This document shows positions 3,407 through 53,071 of a DNA stretch of 64,000 nt, one piece after another. The notes beneath the pieces are model-generated. The model worked only from the letters and a program-made list of their open reading frames with translations, searched no databases and was not told where the DNA came from. The stretch is from Gammaproteobacteria bacterium (GTDB taxonomy: Bacteria; Pseudomonadota; Gammaproteobacteria; UBA4575): positions 69,686 to 133,685 of the forward strand of contig JAPOYL010000011.1 in assembly GCA_026706595.1 (NCBI GenBank). The letters are read 5' to 3'. The stretch's first letter is position 1. Every line of letters starts with the position of its first letter. The position numbers and the translations under genes are program-made.

Positions 3407-4593
3407 ACTCATCCAGACGGTTTGTGCATGGAAGGGAGGCCCGCGAGGATGCAGAGCTGTCCCGTCAATGTGATGTCACGCTCGTCCTGTCTGCAGTACT
3501 GTTGCTCGGCATTGGCCTGGTGATGGTGGCATCCTCCTCGATAGAAATTGCAGACCGTGGTACCGGCGACCCGCTGTACTATTTCAAACGTCAGTTCATT
3601 TTTGCGGTGTTCGGCGTGCTGGCGGCCCTATTGCTCACCAAAGTCCGGCTGGCACACCTGGAACGTTCCGGCATGTTTTTGCTGTTTCTGATGGTGGCCC
3701 TTCTGGTACTGGTACTGATCCCGGGGATGGGCAGGACGGTGTACGGGAGTACGCGCTGGCTGGAGCTCGGCCCCCTGGGCATACAGGTTTCTGAAATTGT
3801 GAAGTTGTTGTTGATCATCTACCTTGCCGGCTATCTGGTCAGGCATGGGCAGCAGGTCATCGAGTCGTTCACCGGATTTGTACGGCCCATGCTGGTCTTG
3901 CTGATCCTGTTTACTTTGCTGCTGCTGGAACCCGATTTCGGTGCTGCCATCGTTTTGCTGGTTACCGCACTTGGCATGTTCTGGCTGGCAGGCGCCAAAA
4001 TCCTCAACTTCGTGATCCTGTTTATCGCATCGGCGGCTTCCATGGCCGTGATTGCCATCTCTTCCCCGTATCGCATGGAACGTCTCACTGCATTTCTCAA
4101 CCCCTGGTCTGACCCGTTCGGTTCAGGTTTTCAGTTGACCCAGTCACTGATTGCGATTGGCAGTGGCTCGTGGACCGGCCTGGGCCTGGGCGCCAGTGTG
4201 CAGAAACTTTTTTACCTGCCCAAGGCGCACAACGATTTCGTGTTTGCCGTCATTGCCGAGGAGCTGGGTCTGGTCGGAGTCGCCGTGGTGCTGCTGCTGT
4301 TCCTGGTGCTGGTTGTCAGGTGTTTCGCGATCGGCAAAAAGGTGGAGGAGAAGGGCATGAAGTTTGGTGCTCTGGTCTGTTACGGGATCGGGGTCTGGCT
4401 GGGGTTGCAGGTCTTCATCAACATCGGTGTCAACATGGGTGTATTGCCCACCAAGGGGCTGACATTGCCATTGATCAGTGCAGGAGGCAGTAGCCTGCTG
4501 GTCGTTTGCATGGCCATCGGCCTGGTCACCCGTGTACACATGGAGGGGGTGGCCGAAGGGTCTGGACTGGTGCGGAGGTTCAGGAACTCATGA
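3403..4593 (+). CDS. ftsW: cell division protein FtsW (SEDS family peptidoglycan glycosyltransferase)
   Basis: Polytopic SEDS protein. GTG start overlaps the murD stop (GTGA). Located between murD and murG. Confidence 0.9.
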   Translation: MNSSRRFVHGREAREDAELSRQCDVTLVLSAVLLLGIGLVMVASSSIEIADRGTGDPLYYFKRQFIFAVFGVLAALLLTKVRLAHLERSGMFLLFLMVALLVLVLIPGMGRTVYGSTRWLELGPLGIQVSEIVKLLLIIYLAGYLVRHGQQVIESFTGFVRPMLVLLILFTLLLLEPDFGAAIVLLVTALGMFWLAGAKILNFVILFIASAASMAVIAISSPYRMERLTAFLNPWSDPFGSGFQLTQSLIAIGSGSWTGLGLGASVQKLFYLPKAHNDFVFAVIAEELGLVGVAVVLLLFLVLVVRCFAIGKKVEEKGMKFGALVCYGIGVWLGLQVFINIGVNMGVLPTKGLTLPLISAGGSSLLVVCMAIGLVTRVHMEGVAEGSGLVRRFRNS

Positions 4594-5717
4594 AGGCGGC
4601 GCGCGCTCCAATCATGATTTTTGCAGCCGGTACGGGTGGTCATGTGTTTCCAGCACTTGCGGTGGCAAGGAAGCTTGAGCAGCAGGGTGTCCCGGTGGTC
4701 TGGGTGGGAACGAAAAAGGGCATAGAATCGCGTGTGGTGGCCAATACCGCCTATCGCTTTGAGGAGATTTCCATCGGCGGTCTTCGAAACAAGGATTTGC
4801 TGACCTACCTGCTGGCACCGGTCAAGCTGGGGCTTGCCGGGCTGCAGACCATCCGGCTGGTACTGAAACACAGGCCCTGCGCGGTACTGGGCATGGGCGG
4901 GTTTGTCTCCGGTACCGGCGGGCTGGCGGCTGCCTTGTTCAGGCGGCCCCTGGTCATCCATGAGCAAAACGCGATTTCGGGTCTGACCAATCGTCTTCTC
5001 GCACCGTTCGCCACCCACATCCTGGCGGCATTCCCAGGCACGTTCGCACGCAAGAACGTGGAAGTGGTCGGCAATCCGGTGCGCAAGGAAATTTCACGAG
5101 ACAAGCGTGAGCACGAAGTCGGTGATCCGGAAGACAGGCCGCTGCATGTGCTCGTGGTGGGCGGCAGCCTGGGCGCGCATACCCTGAACAAGACCGTGCC
5201 GGATGCAGTGGCATTGCTGGAGGCCGGAAAGCGCCCGCAAGTCTGGCATCAGAGTGGAGACAACAAGCTCGAATTCACGCAGCAGGCATACGACTCTCAC
5301 CGGATTGAAGCCCGTGTGGATGCATTCATCGAGAACATGCATGACGCCTATGCATGGGCAGACCTTGTGATTTGTCGCGCTGGCGCGATTACCGTGGCAG
5401 AACTTGCGATAGCGGGTGTCGGTGCTGTTTTTGTCCCGTACCCGTATGCCGTGGACGATCACCAGACGGCCAATGCCAGCGTGTTGGTCAAGGCGGGCGC
5501 GGCCTTCATGATCCAGGAGCGCGAGCTCAATGCATCCGGGCTGGCTGCACTGTTGCGCGATGTGGAAGTGCATCGATCCAAGGTCAGGGACCTTGCTGCG
5601 GCCATCCGGGGCTTTGCCAAGCCACGGGCTGCCGAAGACGTGGCAAAAATTTGCATGCAGGCCTGTCTGAAACGCAAGGGCGAGCACACAGGGCTGGCAG
5701 AGGATCCGGGCTCATGA
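4590..5717 (+). CDS. murG: UDP-N-acetylglucosamine--N-acetylmuramyl-(pentapeptide) pyrophosphoryl-undecaprenol N-acetylglucosamine transferase MurG
   Basis: IMIFAAGTGGHVFPALAVA G-loop near the N-terminus. ATGA overlap with the ftsW stop. Track ORF 4506 is 5'-extended. Confidence 0.92.
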   Translation: MKAARAPIMIFAAGTGGHVFPALAVARKLEQQGVPVVWVGTKKGIESRVVANTAYRFEEISIGGLRNKDLLTYLLAPVKLGLAGLQTIRLVLKHRPCAVLGMGGFVSGTGGLAAALFRRPLVIHEQNAISGLTNRLLAPFATHILAAFPGTFARKNVEVVGNPVRKEISRDKREHEVGDPEDRPLHVLVVGGSLGAHTLNKTVPDAVALLEAGKRPQVWHQSGDNKLEFTQQAYDSHRIEARVDAFIENMHDAYAWADLVICRAGAITVAELAIAGVGAVFVPYPYAVDDHQTANASVLVKAGAAFMIQERELNASGLAALLRDVEVHRSKVRDLAAAIRGFAKPRAAEDVAKICMQACLKRKGEHTGLAEDPGS

Positions 5718-12337: not shown

Positions 12338-13255
12338 GTGATACAACAAAGAACACTAAAGAATGTCATACGTGCGACGGGTGTAGGCCTACATACCGGC
12401 AAGAAAATCTACCTGACACTGCGCCCGGCACCTGTGGATTCCGGGGTCATTTTCCGTCGGGTTGATCTTGATCCGCCCCTTGAAATCAAGGCCAGTCCCG
12501 AGAATGTCGGCGATACCAGTCTGTCCACGACGCTGGTGTCCAAAGGTGTGCGTATTTCCACAGTCGAGCATCTGCTCTCTGCGATGGCGGGTCTGGGCAT
12601 AGACAATGCGTACGTGGATGTCAGTGCTCCGGAAGTGCCCATCATGGATGGCAGTGCGGGCCCCTTCGTTTTCCTGGTGCAATCCTCAGGCATCGTTGAG
12701 CAGAATGCCGCCAAGCGATTCATCCGGATCACCCGGTCCGTGAAGGTCAAGGAAGGCGACAAATGGGCCAGGTTTGACCCGTTCGATGGATTCAAGGTCG
12801 GGTTCATGATCGATTTCGATCACCCGGTCTTCAAGGCCGGTCCGCAAAAGGCCGAACTGGATTTTTCGACGACCTCTTTCGTCAAGGAAATATCACGATC
12901 TCGCACCTTCGGATTCATGCGCGACTTCGAGGCCCTGCGTTCACGCAACCTGGCGCTGGGAGGGAGCCTGGACAACTCGATTGCCGTGGATGATCACCGC
13001 ATCCTGAATGAGGACGGTCTGCGCTACGAGGATGAGTTTGTCAAACACAAGATTCTGGATGCCATCGGCGACCTGTACCTGCTCGGCCACAGCCTGATCG
13101 GTGCGTTCAGCGGCTACAAATCGGGACATGCCCTGAACAACAAGCTGCTGAGAAAACTGGTCGAAGATACGAATGCCTGGGAGGAAGTTACTTTCGAGGA
13201 TGGTGAGGAGAAAGTGCCCATCCTCTACAGTTCTCCTATCAGCGCCAACATCTAG
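12338..13255 (+). CDS. lpxC: UDP-3-O-acyl-N-acetylglucosamine deacetylase LpxC
   Basis: [23 protein letters not shown] is near-identical to the E. coli LpxC N-terminus. GTG start. Immediately after ftsZ. Confidence 0.93.
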
Positions 13256-13280
13256 TGACTGTCCGCCTGCCCGGCGTCCC

Positions 13281-13706
13281 TCAGTCCTTCCTGCCCTGTC
13301 TTGCCAGCCGGCGCAGCGCTTCTTTCAGTTCATGATCCTGTACGTGTTCGGCACATGCATTGATATGGCGGGCGCTGTCCGCCGAGAGGGGTGTGGCCGG
13401 TGCTGGTGGCTTTGGCTCACTGGTGGTTTTTCGGATTTTAATCTTTATCCGATTTAGGTATTCTCTTACCGCAAGGCCAAGCTCCTGGTTGAGTTGTTTC
13501 AGAATTTCATACTGCTGAAACCGGAGCAGGCTGGCATGGCCGGGGTCATCCGTGATGATTGTCAGGGTCCGGTCGTCGATGCTGGCTACCCAGCAGTGGC
13601 TGGCCAGTGTGGCAGGCAACTGCATCCTCAGGCTCAGGGTGAGCCGGTGCAGCAGCCTGGTTTTATTTTGCAGGCCTGTACTGATGTATGACGAGAGTTT
13701 CTGCAT
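13281..13706 (-). CDS. DUF721 family protein (DciA-like replicative helicase loader)
   Basis: About 140 aa, basic C-terminus. Conserved lpxC / DUF721 / M23 peptidase / secA synteny as in Pseudomonas. The internal Met (MQKLSSY) is the likely start. The track ORF begins 6 codons upstream at 13724. Confidence 0.6.
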   Translation of the reverse strand: MQKLSSYISTGLQNKTRLLHRLTLSLRMQLPATLASHCWVASIDDRTLTIITDDPGHASLLRFQQYEILKQLNQELGLAVREYLNRIKIKIRKTTSEPKPPAPATPLSADSARHINACAEHVQDHELKEALRRLARQGRKD

Positions 13707-13758
13707 CCGGATGGGCTCAGCCAAGGATGTTCAATAATCCAGATTAACTGTAACTGCA

Positions 13759-14664
13759 ATGAACATTATCATTTTCCCCCGGTCGTGCCTACGCCTCCTG
13801 TATGTCGAGCCGCGCAAGTGGTACCGGGCCGGCCTGCTTGCCGGTGCGATGCTGACACTGACGGTATTGCTCGGCTGCGGGTACATGCTGGGTCTGCACT
13901 TCGGCAATGAAGTGATCTTGAGCCAGTGGAAGGATGATATCGCAGAACATGAAGAGCGGCTGCAGCTGGCTCGCCAGGAAACCCGGGCTGAAGTCAGTGC
14001 ACTGACCACTCAGGCAGGGATGCTGCAGGCGCAGGTGCAGCGCATCGACGTGCTGGGCAGCGTGCTGATTGAAATGACAGGGCTTGAGCCTGAAGAGTTC
14101 AGCTTTGAGCCGGAATCCGGGATCGGCGGGCCAGCTCCGGTGATGGATGCCCCCGACGGCAGGCAACTGAAGATTGAATCCGAATTCGAACAGATCCAGA
14201 ACAACCTGGAGGCGCGCGAGCGCCAGCTGCAGGTGATCCGCGATGCGCTGGTCGACGAGAAGGTCAGGCAGGAAACCGAGCCACAGGGCCGACCGGTCGA
14301 GTACAGCTGGGTGTCCTCCCTGTTCGGCAAGCGCCGTGACCCCTTTACAGGTCACCCCGAACTGCACCATGGCGTGGATTTTGCCGGCCAGTCCGGCAGC
14401 AACGTGATGGCCGTTGCCGGGGGGATCGTCACGCGTGCGCGCAGGAACGGCGACTACGGCAAGCTGGTGGAAATTGATCACGGCAATGGCTACATGTCGC
14501 GCTATGCGCACAACAAGGTCTTGCTGGTGAAGGCAGGTGAGGTGGTTCGGCGCGGACACGTGATCGCCAAGCTGGGCAATACCGGCCGCTCGACGGGCCC
14601 CCATGTCCACTTCGAGATACTCAAGGACGGTGTCCAGATCGACCCGATGAAGTTCGTCAAGTAG
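13759..14664 (+). CDS. M23 family metallopeptidase (membrane-anchored, coiled-coil, EnvC/NlpD-like)
   Basis: N-terminal TM, central coiled-coil, and a C-terminal LytM domain with HxxxD and HxH motifs (HGVDFAG...GPHVHFEI). Confidence 0.85.
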   Translation: MNIIIFPRSCLRLLYVEPRKWYRAGLLAGAMLTLTVLLGCGYMLGLHFGNEVILSQWKDDIAEHEERLQLARQETRAEVSALTTQAGMLQAQVQRIDVLGSVLIEMTGLEPEEFSFEPESGIGGPAPVMDAPDGRQLKIESEFEQIQNNLEARERQLQVIRDALVDEKVRQETEPQGRPVEYSWVSSLFGKRRDPFTGHPELHHGVDFAGQSGSNVMAVAGGIVTRARRNGDYGKLVEIDHGNGYMSRYAHNKVLLVKAGEVVRRGHVIAKLGNTGRSTGPHVHFEILKDGVQIDPMKFVK

Positions 14665-36605: not shown

Positions 36606-38132
36606 ATGAGAGAAGTTTTTAATCGGTGGTTAGCAATTGCGTTGCTGGCATCGCTGGCCATTTCAGGGACTGCCTATGCAGGCCCGTACGGCTACGATCT
36701 GCACAACGTGCTGGCTCCACGTTCAGCGGGTATGGCGGGTACCAGCATTGCCAAGCCTCTGGATAACGTGTCGGCAATCTTTGGTAACCCTGCCGCATTG
36801 ACGGACTGGACGGGAACGGAGTTCACGTTTGGTGCCACTTACTACAAGCCCGAAGTCAGACTGGATCACTCGGGGGCCTTCAATCTTCCGACCTATGCAG
36901 GTTCGGTACCTGATGCTGTCTTTGGTGAATTTGCGGTACCGGGGCATTCTAAAGAAGGAGGTACTGCCATCGTATGCGGTAACCCAAACGCGTTCTGTAT
37001 TCCCGATGCAGCATTTGACGACGCGGTCAACGGCAACGAGGGCTACATCGTACCGCAGGTGGGTGTGACACAGGATCTGCGGCCGCTCGGCTTGCCCGCT
37101 GTACTGGGCGCGGGACTGACCGCTGTTTCTGGTATCGGTGTGGAGTTTCGTCATGTTGAAGAAACCCTGGGACTGGGCGCGGAGTTCATCGTCCTGGGCG
37201 CGAACTTCTCCCTTGGCTGGGAGCTGAATGAGCGGGTATCTATTGGTGGTGCAGCTACGATAACGTATGCCTACTTGGACCTTGGCTTAGCAGCGACTTC
37301 AGGCGTAACTCATGACACCGGCATGCGTGGAACACTAGGCTTGACTTACGAAGATATCTTGCCAGGTACCCGGTTGGGCGTGTTCTACATGACGGAACTA
37401 CAGCATGTGTTTGACGACATTATTGCCGTACCGCCTGATGATTATGCGCCAGCGCAAGGTGACGCATTCGAAGGATATGGTGACGATGCACCGGTTCGCT
37501 ACGCCTCCATTCCTATTGAGGAGCCGCGTACGATTGGTATCGGCATCTCCAATGAGACCTTCATGGACGGCAACCTGCTGGTTGCAGCCGATGTGATGTG
37601 GAAGAACTGGGAAGAGGCCGACTTCTGGGGCGATGTCTACGAGGACCAGATGGTCTACAGCATCGGTGCCCAGATGAAGATGGGCAACTGGCGTTTCCGT
37701 GCCGGGTATGGCTATGCCGATGATCCGACGGATCGAGATGCACAGGGCGTCAAGGGACTACCCTATGTCTGCTCTTCAGCAACGAGATGTAATGTAATCC
37801 CTGTAGGCAGTGGGAATGACAGCATATTGCATCTTGGGCAATCAGTCCTTGAGTACCTGCAGGCTTCACAGACCGAGGTGATCTATCGCCACCGCGCCAC
37901 GCTAGGTGTGGGGTACATGGGCTTCCTGGCTCCGTTCCTGAACATTGACGGCCATGTAGGCGTGCAGTTCAAGGAGCGCAACCACTACAGTGCGGGTCCT
38001 GTCCAGACAGCAGGCGTTGTTAGTGCTAATGGGGTAGACCTAGGTCCTTTTGATGGATCAGCAACAACCACGGCCGCAGATGTCTGGTCTTGGCATGCAG
38101 GCTTTGCTCTGACCTGGAACTTCCAGTACTGA
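36606..38132 (+). CDS. FadL/TodX-family outer-membrane hydrophobic-compound transporter
   Basis: Signal peptide ending AYA. N-terminal hatch motif IFGNPAAL (the NPA motif of FadL/TodX). Alternating beta-strand pattern. C-terminal aromatic WNFQY. Confidence 0.75.
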   Translation: MREVFNRWLAIALLASLAISGTAYAGPYGYDLHNVLAPRSAGMAGTSIAKPLDNVSAIFGNPAALTDWTGTEFTFGATYYKPEVRLDHSGAFNLPTYAGSVPDAVFGEFAVPGHSKEGGTAIVCGNPNAFCIPDAAFDDAVNGNEGYIVPQVGVTQDLRPLGLPAVLGAGLTAVSGIGVEFRHVEETLGLGAEFIVLGANFSLGWELNERVSIGGAATITYAYLDLGLAATSGVTHDTGMRGTLGLTYEDILPGTRLGVFYMTELQHVFDDIIAVPPDDYAPAQGDAFEGYGDDAPVRYASIPIEEPRTIGIGISNETFMDGNLLVAADVMWKNWEEADFWGDVYEDQMVYSIGAQMKMGNWRFRAGYGYADDPTDRDAQGVKGLPYVCSSATRCNVIPVGSGNDSILHLGQSVLEYLQASQTEVIYRHRATLGVGYMGFLAPFLNIDGHVGVQFKERNHYSAGPVQTAGVVSANGVDLGPFDGSATTTAADVWSWHAGFALTWNFQY

Positions 38133-38152
38133 TTAAAGTCAGTAGTCTTTTG

Positions 38153-38187
38153 GAAAAAAGGGGTGGCATATGCCACCCCTTTTTTTG
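38153..38187. terminator. rho-independent terminator (bidirectional)
   Basis: AAAAAA, then GGGGTGGCATATGCCACCCC (a perfect 20-nt palindromic hairpin), then TTTTTTTG. Confidence 0.85.
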
Positions 38188-38327
38188 TTTCTGACCATAT
38201 TCCCAAAAGTTCCATTTGAGAATACAGGGACTAGTCCCTATCAGAGCCTTGTACAGTCCAAATTATTGGAATTTCAAATTTGATCATAGACATGTCATAT
38301 CAGCTTTTTCTAACAACACCCGTTTCA

Positions 38328-38374
38328 TTTCTGTATAATTCATCTGGTTGATCAATCGTTTCTGTATACAGAAA
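38328..38374 (+). promoter_or_regulatory. candidate promoter (-10 TATAAT at 38334-39) plus perfect 16-bp palindromic operator TTTCTGTATACAGAAA (38359-38374)
   Basis: Direct repeat TTTCTGTATA at 38328 and 38359. The second copy forms the perfect palindrome, 52 bp upstream of the precursor ATG. Confidence 0.5.
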
Positions 38375-38426
38375 TTGTGCCTTGCTCCGCAGGACACACA
38401 TAACAATTGTTGGAGGTTTTATAACG

Positions 38427-38807
38427 ATGGATAAGAAACGTCGTGATTTTAATAAGCTGATGGTGGCTGCAGCAGCTGGATTGATGGCTGGAAGCCAGAC
38501 GGTTGCCTTGGCGGGTCACCCGGGCCATGAAGGTTGTCCGAAGCATAGCTGTAAAGGCCAGAATGAATGCAAGGGCAAGGGTGGCTGCAAGTCAAGCGAC
38601 AACGGTTGCGCAGGCAAGAACTCATGCAAGGGCAAGGGTGGTTGTGATCCAGCCCACACGTATGAGAAGCATGCCTGTAAGGGCCAGAATGCCTGCAAAT
38701 GCCAGGGTGGCTGCAAGTCAGGTGACAACGGCTGTGCCGGTAAAAATTCATGTAAAGGCAAGGGTGGCTGCCAGCTTCCAGTTGACCCCAGCCACATGGA
38801 AGGATAA
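38427..38807 (+). CDS. Cys-rich exported precursor-like protein (bufferin/HvfA-like, DUF2282-type), 126 aa, 13 Cys
   Basis: GGAGG RBS. Twin-arginine signal KRRDFNKLMVAAAAGLMAGSQTVALA. Two 34-aa repeats, each with 6 Cys in a CKGQNxCKGKGGCKSxDNGCAGKNSCKGKGGC pattern. Immediately upstream of a DUF692/DUF2063 pair. Confidence 0.75.
   Translation: MDKKRRDFNKLMVAAAAGLMAGSQTVALAGHPGHEGCPKHSCKGQNECKGKGGCKSSDNGCAGKNSCKGKGGCDPAHTYEKHACKGQNACKCQGGCKSGDNGCAGKNSCKGKGGCQLPVDPSHMEG
38544..38771 (+). repeat. tandem intragenic repeat (2 units of ~102 nt, period ~126 nt) encoding the 6-Cys modules
   Basis: Near-identical nucleotide blocks (tgcaagggcaagggtggctgcaagtca...). They explain the overlapping repetitive ORF-track translations at 38503-38835 on both strands. 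Confidence 0.8.
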
Positions 38808-38967
38808 GCAGTACCTAGCAACTCACTTGTTGTAAAGTTCTGACATTTCCAAAAACGGTTTGAGCATCAACAGGGCTACCGAGTACGGTATGCCCTGTTG
38901 ATTGCTTGAATCCTTTCTCTACTGGTAACATGCTTACCAGGCAAATCTGATTCACAAGGTGGTTTCT

Positions 38968-39819
38968 GTGTCTGTAAAAAACCGCTGGAACTTCCCTGAC
39001 CTTGGACTTGGAATCGGGCTTCGCACAGTCCATTTCAATCACGTTCTTGAACACTGGCCCAAGGTGGACTGGTTCGAGATCCTGTCCGAGAATTTCATGA
39101 ACACGGAAGGAAATCCCGTACGTGTGCTGGACCAGATTGCAGAACGCTACCCGATTGTCATGCACGGGGTTTCCATGTCGATCGGCAGCACGGACCCCAT
39201 CGATTTTGACTACTTCACAAGGCTGAAGGCCCTGGCCGAACGGGTGAACGCCCACTGGCTTGGAGACCATGTCTGCTGGACCGGGGTGCATGGGAAAAAC
39301 GGCCACGACCTCTATCCGCTGCCCTACAATGAGGAATCCTTGGCCTTTCTAGTGGACAGGATACGCACCGTCCAGGATTTCCTGGAGCGTCCCCTGATCC
39401 TGGAGAACCCCTCGACCTACCTGGCCTTTGCAAATTCCACCATGCCCGAAGAGGAATTCCTGGCCCGCATGGCCGAGGAGTCGGACTGCGGACTGCTGCT
39501 GGACGTCAACAACGTCTATGTCACCTGCCGCAACCACGGACTGGATTCCATGGCTTATCTGGATGCGCTCCCCTATGACCGGGTGGTGCAGATTCATCTG
39601 GCCGGGCATACCGACAAGGGTACGCACTGCATCGACACGCACAACGGCCGGGTCATTGACCCGGTGTGGGACCTGTATGCCGAGGTTCAGCGCCGCGCCG
39701 GAAACCGTGCCACGTTGATTGAGTGGGATGCCGACATTCCTTCGTTTGAAGAGGTCCATGCCGAGGTTCTGAAGGCGGCGCAATTCCGCCAGATGACCGA
39801 ACTGCGCCATGCCTCGTGA
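38968..39819 (+). CDS. DUF692 family protein (MbnB/BufB/HvfB-like multinuclear-iron TIM-barrel enzyme)
   Basis: Xylose-isomerase-like TIM barrel with conserved His/Asp/Glu ligand pattern (HGVSMSIGS..., HVCWTG, ENPSTY, QIHLAGH, LIEWD). GTG start with AAGGTGG RBS. The track ORF starts 9 nt upstream. Confidence 0.8.
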
Positions 39820-40663
39820 CGACTCGCGGCTGGAAAGCCTCGAGCAATGGATGTATTTGGTCGTAAGCCACCCTGAGGGTGCCAAGGCCGGAGTCGAAGC
39901 AAGTTCCAAGCTGGATAGTGACGCGGCACACGACCTTGAACAAACCGTCCTGCCTTCCGATAAACTGACTCCGCTGGAGTGCGTCTCGGTCTATGCCGAC
40001 ATGTACTTCTGGCGATTTATCGAGATTATGGCCGGGGAATACCCGACCGTGCAGCACATCCTTGGAGAGGAGTTGTTCAACCAAGTAGTCAGGGATTACA
40101 TTGCACATCATCCCTCGACGCACTACAACCTGAATCGCCTGAGCATCAAGTTCCCGCATTACCTGGAAAAGGAGGTCACGGATCTTCCGCACCAGCCTTT
40201 TGTGGTTGCAATCGCCACGGTTGAACGTGTCATGGAGGATGCCTTCGATGACCCGCATCGGGAGAAGATCTCCCCGGAGGCTATCCAGAGCATCCCGGGG
40301 GAGCAATGGGGCGACATCCGGCTGCAGTTCAACCCGGCCCTGTATCTACTGGAACTGGATTATCCGGTCAATGACTATATGACGGCGGTGAATGAAAACC
40401 GCCATATGGACATCCCGCAGGCCGATAAGACATTTGTCGTGGTGTATCGTTGCGATTACACGGTCTGGCGTGAAGACCTGGACTATGAAAGCTACCTGCT
40501 GTTATCGCGGCTTAAGGACGGGGAGTCCTTGGGTGAAGCCCTAGAGAGTTGCACCCTGCAAGAAGGTGTTGACGCCGACAAGATTACGGCCAGCTTGGGT
40601 GAGTGGTTTCAGCGATGGACTGCCCAGGAATTCTTCTGCGGTCTTGAAATCGATTCTGATTGA
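39809..40663 (+). CDS. DUF2063 family protein (MbnC/BufC/HvfC-like partner)
   Basis: Overlaps the DUF692 stop by 11 nt, suggesting translational coupling. About 280 aa, consistent with the obligate DUF692-DUF2063 pairing. Confidence 0.7.
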
Positions 40664-40776: not shown

Positions 40777-41106
40777 TTATGGGATGCAGCGAAAGACCGC
40801 AAAGGTCTGCTGCCCGCGATCCACTTTCGACATCGGTACGACCGTGTCACCGCCCATATGGATTGCACTGTTGCGTGCCAGACGCTGTAACTGGTGTGCA
40901 ATCGTGGAAGGACTTTTGGGTACGAGACCCAAGTATTTCTCGCCGATACTGACCGTTGCCCCGCCATTTTTCTGGCAGTTTTTTACATCATCGGGGCTTA
41001 GCACGCGTGCTTTTTCCCCTTCAATGGTCAGTTCGATGGTTTCACAGGAGGCCAGGACAAATAAGGTCGCAGTTACCAGGACTGCAATTCGAAGTTTGGA
41101 AATCAT
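40777..41106 (-). CDS. small lipoprotein (109 aa), unknown function (RcsF-like size and Cys pattern)
   Basis: Signal peptide with lipobox LASC. No reliable family assignment. Confidence 0.5.
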   Translation of the reverse strand: MISKLRIAVLVTATLFVLASCETIELTIEGEKARVLSPDDVKNCQKNGGATVSIGEKYLGLVPKSPSTIAHQLQRLARNSAIHMGGDTVVPMSKVDRGQQTFAVFRCIP

Positions 41107-41317
41107 GGCCGATTCAGTTGTGGGTCGGTATGGATGTGTCGCCGATCTGTTACCTTCAGACCCCGCAAATGGTACAGGAATATGTATAAAAAATACAGAA
41201 CCGTTCCTGAAGTGTAGTGTCTAGCTGACCAAAATTATGAGGGCGCCGGCGTTGCTTGTTTTGGGCTTGAGTTTACTTTCTTCTGACGTGTACCGGCCCG
41301 CCAAGTATTCCTTTGCA

Positions 41318-50878: not shown

Positions 50879-50899
50879 AATATGTTATACTATAATATT
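50879..50899 (+). promoter_or_regulatory. Zur box (zinc uptake regulator operator) upstream of zur-znuCB
   Basis: AATATGTTATACTATAATATT matches ATGTTATA-n-TATAACAT at 15 of 17 positions. It overlaps a TATAAT -10. Confidence 0.6.
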
Positions 50900-50965
50900 A
50901 AAATGGGGCACCAAGATGCGAGTCCTGCGTCGTGTCGTTACTCTCTTCTGACCAAGGTGATATCC

Positions 50966-51469
50966 ATGGACCAGCCATCTTTTCCACAACGCCAGCATGA
51001 TCATGAAGCCTGCGTTCATGCAGGTATGGCGCATGCGGAAGCCGCATGCGAGAGTCGTAATGAGCGCTTTACGGCAAATCGCCGCTCCGTTCTCAAGTTG
51101 CTGCTAGCTGGGCATCGCCCGCTAGGCGTCTACGAACTCATGAAACAGTTTGACTGGAAAGGGCGCAAACCTGCACCCGCCCAGATTTATCGTGCACTCG
51201 AGTTTCTGGAATCCATTGGCCTCGTACACCGTATTGAAAGCTGCAACGCCTATCTCGCATGCAACCGTCCTGGCCGCCACCACTGCACTATATTTCTGGT
51301 GTGTGAGCAGTGCAAAACGGTTGCTGAAGTCGAGGCTGAACGCATGCAGGGTGCCATCACAGATCTTGCTGGACAGACCGGCTTCGAACTTCACTCCCAG
51401 GTTCTCGAGGCCCGCGGACTTTGTCCGGAGTGCGTCGGTGCTGCAGCAACCGACGAGGCAGACAGTTGA
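50966..51469 (+). CDS. zur: Fur-family zinc uptake regulator Zur
   Basis: wHTH followed by Cys/His metal sites (HCTIFLVCEQC, CPEC). Operonic with znuCB. An alternative later start lies at about 51029. Confidence 0.8.
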   Translation: MDQPSFPQRQHDHEACVHAGMAHAEAACESRNERFTANRRSVLKLLLAGHRPLGVYELMKQFDWKGRKPAPAQIYRALEFLESIGLVHRIESCNAYLACNRPGRHHCTIFLVCEQCKTVAEVEAERMQGAITDLAGQTGFELHSQVLEARGLCPECVGAAATDEADS

Positions 51470-51471
51470 AC

Positions 51472-52272
51472 ATGGGCAGGGTCCGGTTGATCGAGGCCCG
51501 GGGAATCCGCATTCGCAGAAAAGGGCGCTTGCTTCTTCACGGGGTGGACATCCATGTGGACCGGGGGGAAGTGGTGACGCTGATCGGGCCAAACGGTGCT
51601 GGTAAAACCACGCTCGTGCGGGTACTGCTTGGATTGCTGGCGCCGGATAACGGTCATGTACAGCGTGAATCCTCTGTCCAGGTAGGGTATGTGCCCCAGC
51701 ATCTCCACCTGAACTCGACCATGCCACTTTCTGTAAAGCGCATGATGAACCTGACCGGCCGGCCCCCTTCGGGTGCTGTTGAGGATGCACTGGATGAAAC
51801 CGGATCCCTGAAGTTGCTTGAAGCCCGTATGGCTGATCTTTCGGGTGGCGAACTGCGCAGGGTGTTGCTGGCACGTGCGCTGCTGAGTCAGCCTGATCTG
51901 CTGATCCTGGATGAACCTGTGCAGGGGGTAGATTATATTGGGGAAGCAGACATGTACGCACTGATCGCGGAGATTGTTGCGCGCCATGGATGTGGTGTAC
52001 TCATGGTGAGCCATGATCTCCATATCGTGATGGCTGCTACGGACAGGGTCGTCTGTCTGAATCACCACATATGCTGTACCGGAGTGCCCCAAGAAGTAGT
52101 TGGGCATGACGAATTCCAGCGTCTGTTCGGCACGCGTGCAGGAGTCGTAACCGCGCTCTACCAGCACAGCCACGACCATGTGCATGATCCCGCCAGTGTT
52201 GTGCAGCCAGCATGCGATGAGGATGCATTTCCGCGTATGCGGTCTGTGGAGGAAGTCAAGGATGCTGGATGA
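51472..52272 (+). CDS. znuC: zinc ABC transporter ATP-binding protein ZnuC
   Basis: Walker A GPNGAGKTT, signature LSGGE, His-rich C-terminal tail HSHDHVHD. Track ORF is 5'-extended. Confidence 0.9.
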   Translation: MGRVRLIEARGIRIRRKGRLLLHGVDIHVDRGEVVTLIGPNGAGKTTLVRVLLGLLAPDNGHVQRESSVQVGYVPQHLHLNSTMPLSVKRMMNLTGRPPSGAVEDALDETGSLKLLEARMADLSGGELRRVLLARALLSQPDLLILDEPVQGVDYIGEADMYALIAEIVARHGCGVLMVSHDLHIVMAATDRVVCLNHHICCTGVPQEVVGHDEFQRLFGTRAGVVTALYQHSHDHVHDPASVVQPACDEDAFPRMRSVEEVKDAG

Positions 52273-53071
52273 TTTTTTCGTTCGCGCACTCTTAGTGGCC
52301 GCCGGCGTGGGCTGTGTTGCCGGACCGCTTGGCTGCTTTTTGCTGTGGCGCAGGATGGCCTATTTTGGGGATACCATGGCACATTCTGCCCTGCTGGGCG
52401 TAGCGCTTGGGATGGTCCTCGGCAGTTCACCGGTTCTCGGGGTTTTTACCATTGTAATTGTGACTGCATTGTCTTTGCTGTTTCTGCAAAGAGCAGTCCA
52501 TCTCGCCAGTGACACCCTGCTGGGACTGCTCTCGCATACAGCCTTGGCCTTGGGAGTGGTGGTGCTTGCCATCTCCGGTTCAGCAAACGGGCATAGCCTC
52601 TTGGGTTACCTATTCGGTGATGTACTGGCCGTGACCCGTATGGACCTTGCCATGGTCTGGGTCGGGGGGCTTATTTGCCTCGCAGTACTGGCTTACATTT
52701 GGCGCCCGCTGGTCGCGCTCACCGTGCACGAGGACCTGGCTCGTGCAGAAGGCAGTCCGGTTGAACGCTGCCAGATCATCTACATGATTCTGATGGCCGG
52801 AGCCGTGGCAGCCGGCATGAAGGTGGTTGGTGTACTGCTGGTGGTGGCCATGCTCATCATCCCGGCTGCGGCAGCCCAATCCCTGTCCCGCACACCGGAG
52901 CAGATGGCGGTACTTGCTGCCATCATCGGTATCATTTCAGGAGGCGGTGGCCTGTATGGCTCACTGGTACTGGATACTCCCTCCGGTCCGTCGATCGTGG
53001 TGATGGCAGGAATTCTTTTCCTGATCAGCCTGTTGATCCAGCCCATCAGCCGGGCGCTGGAATCTGCCTAA
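52262..53071 (+). CDS. znuB: zinc ABC transporter permease ZnuB
   Basis: ABC-3 family permease with 8 TM helices. Overlaps the znuC stop. Confidence 0.88.
   Translation: MLDDFFVRALLVAAGVGCVAGPLGCFLLWRRMAYFGDTMAHSALLGVALGMVLGSSPVLGVFTIVIVTALSLLFLQRAVHLASDTLLGLLSHTALALGVVVLAISGSANGHSLLGYLFGDVLAVTRMDLAMVWVGGLICLAVLAYIWRPLVALTVHEDLARAEGSPVERCQIIYMILMAGAVAAGMKVVGVLLVVAMLIIPAAAAQSLSRTPEQMAVLAAIIGIISGGGGLYGSLVLDTPSGPSIVVMAGILFLISLLIQPISRALESA

Follow-up and report, generated by a model that had tools for sequence, protein, structure and literature searches.

A conserved palindrome in the bufA promoter of a bufferin operon: candidate repressor operator or leader stem-loop in one clade of Gammaproteobacteria

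Results and Discussion

The bufA promoter and its palindrome

The window analyzed here is a stretch of 64,000 nucleotides from a gammaproteobacterial genome (assembly GCA_026706595.1, contig JAPOYL010000011.1, positions 69,686 to 133,685). By its domain matches, its bufABC operon is a BufA2-type bufferin cluster that encodes a Cys-rich precursor, the MNIO maturase BufB, and the DUF2063 protein BufC. Bufferins are a copper-binding family of ribosomally synthesized and post-translationally modified peptides (PMC11626156). The subject of this study is a perfect 16-bp palindrome, TTTCTGTATACAGAAA, in the bufA promoter, together with a partial copy of it on the -10 element and a related half-site at an adjoining lipoprotein gene. 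The features needed to follow the argument are listed below.

38310-38315, plus strand: putative weak -35 hexamer CTAACA, 18 bp 5′ of TATAAT, found by consensus scan
38328-38339, plus strand: upstream arm copy TTTCTGTATA fused to the -10 hexamer TATAAT; candidate auxiliary half-site overlapping the -10
38359-38374, no strand: palindrome TTTCTGTATACAGAAA, perfect 8+8 (16 bp); candidate operator or stem-loop 1 of the 5′ untranslated region (5′-UTR)
38413-38417, plus strand: ribosome-binding site (RBS) GGAGG, inside the conserved block 38401-38426
38427-38807, plus strand: bufA, Cys-rich BufA2-type precursor with signal peptide, 126 aa, two repeats
40777-41106, minus strand: DUF4156 lipoprotein gene (Pfam), convergent with bufABC and syntenic in all close relatives

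The initial annotation had described TTTCTGTATACAGAAA in the promoter of the precursor gene, and the palindrome is indeed there, without a mismatch, at 38359-38374. The 10-mer repeat reported 31 bp upstream, overlapping the -10, was confirmed as well. TTTCTGTATA occupies 38328-38337 and shares its four final bases with the beginning of TATAAT (38334-38339). A repeat search gave a direct repeat of 13 nt with 12/13 identical positions (TCATTTCTGTATA at 38325-38337 and TCGTTTCTGTATA at 38356-38368), separated by 31 bp from start to start. As had been proposed, the palindrome is flanked by a plausible -10 on its 5′ side and by the RBS (38413-38417) on its 3′ side; the ATG of the precursor follows at 38427.

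The combination CTAACA-18-TATAAT has 10/12 consensus matches in the promoter scan. The region contains three promoter-like sites versus 2.9 expected in shuffled sequence. Because such matches are equally frequent in shuffled sequence, the scan is no evidence on its own. We infer a transcription start near 38346, which would put the palindrome at about +13 to +28. It is thus probably transcribed.

Sequence constraint on the promoter and leader

The window was aligned with eight species-level relatives (L004-L011; 88-99% BufB identity), giving nine sequences. The neutral rate was taken from the four-fold degenerate sites of bufB, 28/108 of which are invariant (26%), and binomial P values were calculated against it. 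The invariant columns were distributed as follows.

38255-38299: upstream block, 7/45 invariant, neutral-like
38300-38327: -35 and spacer, 6/28 invariant, neutral-like
TTCTGTATAAT (upstream copy plus -10): 11/11 invariant, P=3.6e-7
38340-38358 (adjoining the 5′ side of the palindrome): 8/19 invariant, P=0.09
38359-38374 (palindrome): 14/16 invariant, P=4e-7
38375-38400 (second hairpin region): 14/26 invariant, P=0.002
38401-38426 (RBS block): 23/26 invariant, P=4e-11

The palindrome is under strong purifying selection at the sequence level. As its conservation exceeds the four-fold-site rate, it is more than a chance pattern, and the comparative data indicate that the element is functional in some way. 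The promoter block was retained although the sequence 5′ of about -130 could not be aligned, owing to insertions (e.g., a putative TIR gene in L007).

Four distinct contigs (L227, L229, L231, and L228/L232) extended the alignment to 13 sequences, the additions comprising only L227 and exact-match contigs. In this set the palindrome showed three variants: T>G at position 9, C>T at position 11, and A>G at position 16. TTCTGTATAAT was unchanged in 9/9 and 13/13 clade sequences. An RBS-anchored pattern scan of metagenome contigs for further promoter variants returned 0 matches. The palindrome is not present in the relatives of 79-83% identity (L012, L013, L052, L085, L086, L233, L236, and L237), and the element is therefore specific to one clade, with BufB identity of at least 88%.

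The same data bear on whether the palindrome might be incidental. Under this explanation, it would be conserved through an overall constraint on the promoter and early transcript, or because the clade is young at this locus, and neither the dyad nor the repeat would have a function of its own. Perfect 16-bp palindromes occurred 1.1 times per window in block shuffles, with one or more in 63% of the shuffles; the window contains three. L085 and L052, in which the right arm is missing, already have a left-arm-like TTCTG at the homologous position, and other blocks of the UTR are equally conserved. The constraint is not uniform, however, as it falls off at 38340-38358 (8/19) and in the second hairpin (14/26). 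Moreover, both arms are invariant, and the arm recurs twice more at conserved positions. An incidental origin is therefore improbable, although it carries more weight than the two mechanisms discussed next and under NrdR.

The direct repeat might also act on the polymerase itself. Sigma retained on the early elongating polymerase would then recognize a second -10 region, the downstream copy TTCTGTATA, and a sigma-70-dependent promoter-proximal pause would result. In favor of such a pause, the -10 region recurs as a direct repeat early in the transcribed region. The T at the last position of the -10 is essential for -10 recognition. The downstream hexamer, TATACA, is without this T, and the variants TAGACA and TAGATA are no better, which makes a pause very unlikely.

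Two further small perfect palindromes occur in the same leader. TTGATCAA, which contains GATC, lies at 38348-38355 and is kept in 7/9 aligned sequences. AACAATTGTT adjoins the RBS at 38402-38411, and only its AATTGTT part is invariant in the nine-sequence alignment. About 70 bp 5′ of the inferred start, the inverted repeat GAATTTCAAATTC is found at an equivalent place in L005, L006, L007, and L010. The window copy (38268-38282) is imperfect (GAATTTCAAATTT). This repeat is partly conserved and could be an activator or UP-like site.

The half-site at the lipoprotein promoter

The promoter of the DUF4156 lipoprotein gene has two elements related to the palindrome arm.

41193-41200, minus strand: half-site 8-mer TTCTGTAT, 87 nt upstream of the DUF4156 lipoprotein ATG
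41169-41180, minus strand: conserved TTCCTGTACCAT, with a second CTGTA and a likely -10 of the form TAnnAT

The initial annotation had placed such a half-site in the promoter of a divergent lipoprotein gene. The site is present (41200-41193, minus strand), but the gene is convergent with the operon, not divergent. TTCTGTAT lies within the conserved block GTTCTGTATTTT, where it is exact in 5/8 relatives and has one substitution in the other three. The second CTGTA follows 21 bp 3′ of it, inside TTCCTGTAC (41180-41172, minus strand); together with the likely -10, it belongs to the second conserved block of this promoter, ATATTCCTGTAC(C/T)AT. The chance expectation of the 8-mer in the 211-nt lipoprotein intergenic region is 0.008, in a comparison made post hoc. 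A link between this 8-mer and the palindrome is suggestive at the sequence level.

The whole window contains eight copies of TTCTGTAT versus 0.6 expected. Outside the two promoters, three copies are coding and one lies in an unrelated intergenic region, according to crude gene calls; one of the coding copies is in dapA, and it is found at the same spot in four relatives. These four copies are not evidence of a regulon.

Comparison with known sites

The gammaproteobacterial LexA SOS box is CTGT-N8-ACAG, 16 bp in length. The palindrome has in common with it the CTGTAT half-site, the dyad symmetry, and the closeness to the promoter. It reads, however, CTGT-AT-ACAG, with an N2 spacing that is six bp too short, and no CTGT stands 12 bp 5′ of the ACAG. 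At the lipoprotein promoter the site is CTGT-N9-ACAT, of which the right half shows no conservation. The targets do not fit either: they are bufABC and the DUF4156 lipoprotein, not SOS genes such as recA, lexA, and uvrA. We therefore agree with the earlier statement that the motif is not a LexA box.

Among the window open reading frames (ORFs) scanned, the only metal regulator was a Fur-family protein, whose gene lies 12 kb from the operon and is followed by znuC and znuB (genes ~50903-53071). It is presumably Zur, as the zur-znuCB promoter carries a canonical Zur-type box, ATGTTATACTATAATAT (50882-50898), in an 8-1-8 layout. Zur and Fur boxes resemble the palindrome: they are A/T-rich dyads, have a TGT...ACA core, and occur in the promoters of genes for metal homeostasis. 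The half-sites of ATGTTATACTATAATAT do not superpose on CTGTA/TACAG, and the layout differs, so Zur was rejected. The longest ORF of the Fur-family gene starts inside the Zur box; its true start is probably the in-frame ATG at 50903 or 50915.

The cop box of CopY/BlaI regulators is TACA-N2-TGTA. The palindrome has the inverse arrangement, TGTA-TACA, with no spacer, and CopY was also set aside. GntR/FadR-type operators are palindromes around GT-Nx-AC, for example ...GGTATACC.... The core GTATAC of the palindrome fits this loose rule, which is too permissive to be of use. No GntR-family gene was found among the ~20 of ~54 window ORFs scanned against Pfam and the 21 genes of L001. A full-text literature search for CTGTATACAG gave no title on a bacterial operator; the matches were probably primers.

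The class II LitR/CarH operator is a direct repeat of the form T(G/A)TACA-N12-TGTA(C/T)A (PMC9758184). In the bufA promoter, the TGTATA copies are 31 bp apart, and the lipoprotein promoter reads TGTATT-N15-TGTACC rather than N12. Class II LitR was rejected accordingly.

A match in architecture was found to the sites of NrdR, a tetrameric nucleotide-sensing repressor. NrdR sites consist of two 16-bp partial palindromes with a linker of 15-16 bp (or 26-27 bp), often covering the -10 and the transcription start (PMC13584703). The positions C4, A6, A8, T9, T11, and G13 are conserved in each box, C4 and G13 being critical (PMC13584703). Tandem NrdR boxes at 38328-38343 and 38359-38374 would have a 15-bp linker. 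This 16-15-16 layout matches NrdR sites exactly and overlaps the -10 and transcription start region. Box 2 has C4, A8, T9, and G13, with 75% A+T between C4 and G13. It departs, however, from two conserved positions (G6 for A6 and C11 for T11), and A6G in both boxes cuts the affinity 4- to 10-fold (PMC13584703). Box 1 (C4, G6, A8, T9, A11, T13) is without the critical G13 and also without T11, and NrdR needs two boxes. The downstream genes are a bufferin cluster, not ribonucleotide reductase genes. We thus give binding by NrdR hardly any credence.

The known regulation of bufferin operons involves SigF/NrsF in Caulobacter, BvgAS in Bordetella, and metal induction in Cupriavidus and Legionella, and the term operator occurs 0 times in the paper concerned (PMC11626156). 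These operons have the same kind of genes (precursor, MNIO enzyme, and DUF2063 protein) but are regulated by an extracytoplasmic function (ECF) sigma factor or a two-component system. No sigma/anti-sigma pair adjoining the present operon was seen in the gene neighbourhoods of the window and its relatives. Autoregulation by BufC was considered on the basis of the Pfam name of its family, "putative DNA-binding domain". It was set aside, since NCBIfam files the family as a RiPP maturation partner.

The leader as RNA

The initial annotation took no RNA reading into account. The palindrome could be stem-loop 1 (SL1) of a structured bufA 5′ leader, with a stem of 6-7 bp and a UAUA loop, followed by a second predicted hairpin.

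38377-38399, plus strand: stem-loop 2 (SL2) of the 5′-UTR, TGTG-C-CTTGC / TCC / GCAGG-A-CACA, predicted by RNA folding

Such an element would act on the stability, processing, or translation of the mRNA of a highly expressed precursor, possibly by binding an RNA-binding protein or a small RNA. Structured 5′ leaders and intercistronic hairpins are known for precursor-peptide mRNAs. Like them, the present leader has a hairpin 5′ of the RBS; the precursor gene is short and highly expressed, and a strong hairpin with covarying pairs directly follows it. The leader differs in that SL1 is weak, invariant in sequence, and without covariation in the clade.

Several folding results point to RNA. Both hairpins are present in the minimum free energy (MFE) and centroid structures, and SL1 alone folds with -5.4 kcal/mol (z=-4.6). 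SL1 and SL2 also appear in the consensus fold, in which 96.9% of the cells are paired. Of the three substitutions in the 13 sequences, one falls in the loop and the other two preserve pairing as wobbles (G-C to G.U and U-A to U.G). Differing inverted repeats are found at the same place in the outgroups (L085, -10.3 kcal/mol; L013, -9.7 kcal/mol). TTATTC...GAATAA of L013 aligns with TTTCTG...CAGAAA, which gives three pair-preserving double differences, provided that the two are homologous. The operon also uses RNA structure elsewhere: the hairpin between bufA and bufB, which served as a positive control, has four compensatory pairs in the same sequence set.

Other results do not favor a leader structure. 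The palindrome shows no compensatory double change within the clade, and the shuffle control was not significant. The fold of the whole UTR has a z of only -0.61, and over 38100-39000 no match to an Rfam family approached the gathering score. The changes in SL2 are one-sided and of wobble type, none being compensatory on both sides, and its pairing is lost in the outgroups L052 and L012. Near-perfect conservation of the letters of a weak A-U stem exceeds what a structure needs. The invariant TTC(TG) 5′ of the -10 is left unexplained, as is the conserved TTCTGTAT of the lipoprotein promoter, where no hairpin is conserved. A role in RNA cannot account for the upstream arm copy, because this copy, being on the -10, precedes the inferred start of the transcript. 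Finally, the hairpin would be ~13 nt from the inferred 5′ end, which is far for a 5′ stabilizer. A leader stem-loop is thus a possible but rather doubtful explanation, and it is the strongest of the alternatives to an operator.

The leaders of L085, L052, and L012, which are 81-83% relatives, contain a GAGGGG...CCTC(C/T)T hairpin (e.g., L085:2480-2530), with an anti-Shine-Dalgarno-like 3′ arm. This hairpin might compete with the real RBS, and it could be a translational switch in these lineages.

A candidate repressor operator

With these comparisons in hand, we propose, tentatively, a repressor operator confined to this clade. The palindrome, at about +13 to +28, would be the full dyad; the arm copy on the -10 would provide an auxiliary half-site, and the lipoprotein promoter may contain a further site. 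Although this proposal falls short of an even chance, we regard an operator as the most likely mechanism, ahead of the 5′-UTR stem-loop. A dimeric DNA-binding repressor, encoded elsewhere in the genome, would bind TTTCTGTATACAGAAA in the bufA promoter. It would probably also contact the identical arm TTCTGTATA that overlaps the -10, 31 bp or three helical turns further 5′. The bound repressor would prevent open complexes from forming or block early elongation, and the bufferin operon would be kept off until a signal releases the repressor. The metal response raised as a possibility in the initial annotation is purely conjectural, and the one metal regulator seen in the window, Zur, has a box of a different kind. 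The TTCTGTAT copy in the adjoining DUF4156 promoter may bring the lipoprotein gene under the same control.

The support for an operator comes from constraint, spacing, and position. The constraint is on sequence, as a weak A-U-rich stem (-5.4 kcal/mol) stays almost letter-perfect. The arms of the bufA promoter are spaced by 31 bp, or three helical turns, and the CTGTA motifs of the lipoprotein promoter by 21 bp, or two turns. The region between the -10 and the RBS is the classic position for a repressor. What is generally expected of an operator is found here: dyad symmetry just downstream of the core promoter, conserved over the neutral rate.

A number of observations weigh against this proposal. 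The palindrome alone proves little, because about one perfect 16-bp palindrome per window is expected by chance. Constraint extends over the whole 5′-UTR (RBS block, 23/26), in which the palindrome is one conserved island among several. A hairpin would accommodate each of the three palindrome substitutions in the 13 sequences, and the outgroups of 79-83% identity have unrelated inverted repeats at the same position. The TG directly 5′ of the -10 hexamer is also present at two other candidate -10s of the window, so part of the conservation of the upstream copy may be a promoter feature. In L052, TTC precedes TATAAT, and both L052 and L085 have TTCTG where the left arm would be; neither has the palindrome. 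Some of the repeat may therefore have been inherited from an ancestral promoter.

The search for a regulator and for further sites likewise counts against an operator. Apart from orthologous sites, no further site with three or fewer mismatches to the 16-mer was found in the window or in ~160 kb of relatives, and no regulator for the palindrome was found among the window ORFs scanned or in the loci of the relatives. The 8-mer of the lipoprotein promoter is the only other candidate site. A genome-wide regulon, as suggested in the initial annotation, could thus not be defined by motif search across the 64 kb and the ~160 kb of relatives. The 8-mer with up to one mismatch gave nine intergenic matches versus ~7 expected at uniform composition, and is not enriched. 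The earlier remark that the operon has no regulator gene proved correct, and it extends to the syntenic neighbourhood. In the eight relatives, this neighbourhood contains no transcription factor save a LysR gene beyond proS. That gene is displaced from the locus by putative toxin-antitoxin insertions in L008-L011, and the intergenic region adjoining it has no related motif.

A wider conclusion would be that a new lineage-specific repressor circuit couples the copper-chelating bufferin and the DUF4156 lipoprotein to one signal in reduced-genome sponge symbionts. We regard this coupling as less probable than the operator itself and offer it as a speculative extension. If true, this would be the first bufferin operon described to be under control of the repressor/operator type; the known ones use ECF sigma factors or two-component systems. 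Bufferins are recently recognized and very widespread copper-binding peptides, and the switching of their operons is known in few cultured bacteria. A conserved cis-element in an uncultured, putative sponge-symbiont lineage is a handle for finding the regulator and its signal. The scope is narrow: one clade and an ordinary type of element, whether it works as DNA or RNA.

The 16-mer in other contigs

Scans for the exact 16-mer TTTCTGTATACAGAAA gave 20 loci in viral contigs and at least 120 in metagenome contigs, mostly unrelated or chance single occurrences. A minority form multi-copy arrays that are clearly functional. Two to three copies or near-copies were present in the phage contigs L131, L201, L208, L210, L213, L214, L216, L218-L220, and L223-L225. 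The spacing in these arrays is 31 bp in L131 and L208, as in the bufA promoter, 21 bp in L201, and 41 bp in L224. Where checked, the arrays were inside a gene for a Lin1244_N/DUF7833-type replication protein (L213, e.g., 4500-5444; L201; L224), and they look like origin iterons. These Lin1244_N (DUF4373) arrays share with the bufA promoter the identical 16-mer, along with near-copies such as TTTCTGTATGCAGAAA. They differ in lying within a replication gene in viral contigs, whereas neither such a gene nor a prophage is near the bufferin operon.

In high-GC contigs (60-64%), tandem pairs of the 16-mer, perfect or with 1-3 mismatches, occur 19-21 bp apart.

L129:8887-8923: tandem pair
L088:1987-2022: tandem pair
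L151:1186-1221: tandem pair
L168:3454-3488: tandem pair

The genes 3′ of these pairs are unrelated (GFA-family, P450, glycosyltransferase, and rnpA), and the set looks like the regulon of a global regulator. None of the 16-mer arrays found elsewhere was linked to bufferins, and their flanking genes share no common regulator. The arrays suggest that the 16-mer can serve as a protein-binding dyad, and to that extent alone they favor an operator in the bufA promoter; they give no identity for the protein that would bind there.

The operon and its neighbourhood

The two genes downstream of bufA are the following.

38968-39819, plus strand: bufB, MNIO family bufferin maturase, start from the gene call
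39809-40663, plus strand: bufC, DUF2063/HvfC-type partner protein, from Pfam and NCBIfam searches

The bufB product matched Pfam MbnB_TglH_ChrH (8e-106) and NCBIfam MNIO_BufB with 356.8 bits, over the 310-bit cut-off. The bufA product gave E=1.6e-13 and 50.7 bits against NCBIfam Cu_RiPP_BufA2, under the curated cut-off of 60, and a weak match to Pfam DUF7640. The precursor appears to be a divergent member of its family; its internal duplication was read from the translation.

The order of genes in the neighbourhood is three GST-like genes, small unknown genes, a FadL-like outer-membrane protein gene, bufABC, DUF4156, and proS. This neighbourhood is syntenic in all close relatives. The closest relatives are metagenome-assembled genomes of Gammaproteobacteria, with chromosomes of ~1.85-1.97 Mb, and their isolate names suggest that they come from sponge metagenomes.

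Lineage-specific insertions were seen on both sides of the operon. In L007, an inserted 314-aa ORF (L007:8138-9082), putatively TIR-like by its sequence, separates the outer-membrane protein gene from the bufA promoter. In L008-L011, small ORFs at ~12350-13800, putatively toxin-antitoxin or ATPase genes, are inserted between the DUF4156 gene and proS.

The hairpin between bufA and bufB (38858-38911) is very stable, the region having an MFE of -57.8 kcal/mol (z=-5.4). Four of its base pairs show compensatory double changes in 12 clade sequences. It is followed by a second hairpin of 7 bp (38922-38940; CTGGTAA/TTACCAG), which is almost invariant; two sequences break its innermost pair. These hairpins are probably a processing, stability, or attenuation element that would set the ratio of precursor to enzyme.

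A perfect 16+16 inverted repeat, AAAAAAGGGGTGGCAT/ATGCCACCCCTTTTTT, lies at 38154-38185, 3′ of the FadL-like outer-membrane protein gene. It resembles a bidirectional intrinsic terminator, being flanked by A-runs on one side and by T-runs on the opposite side.

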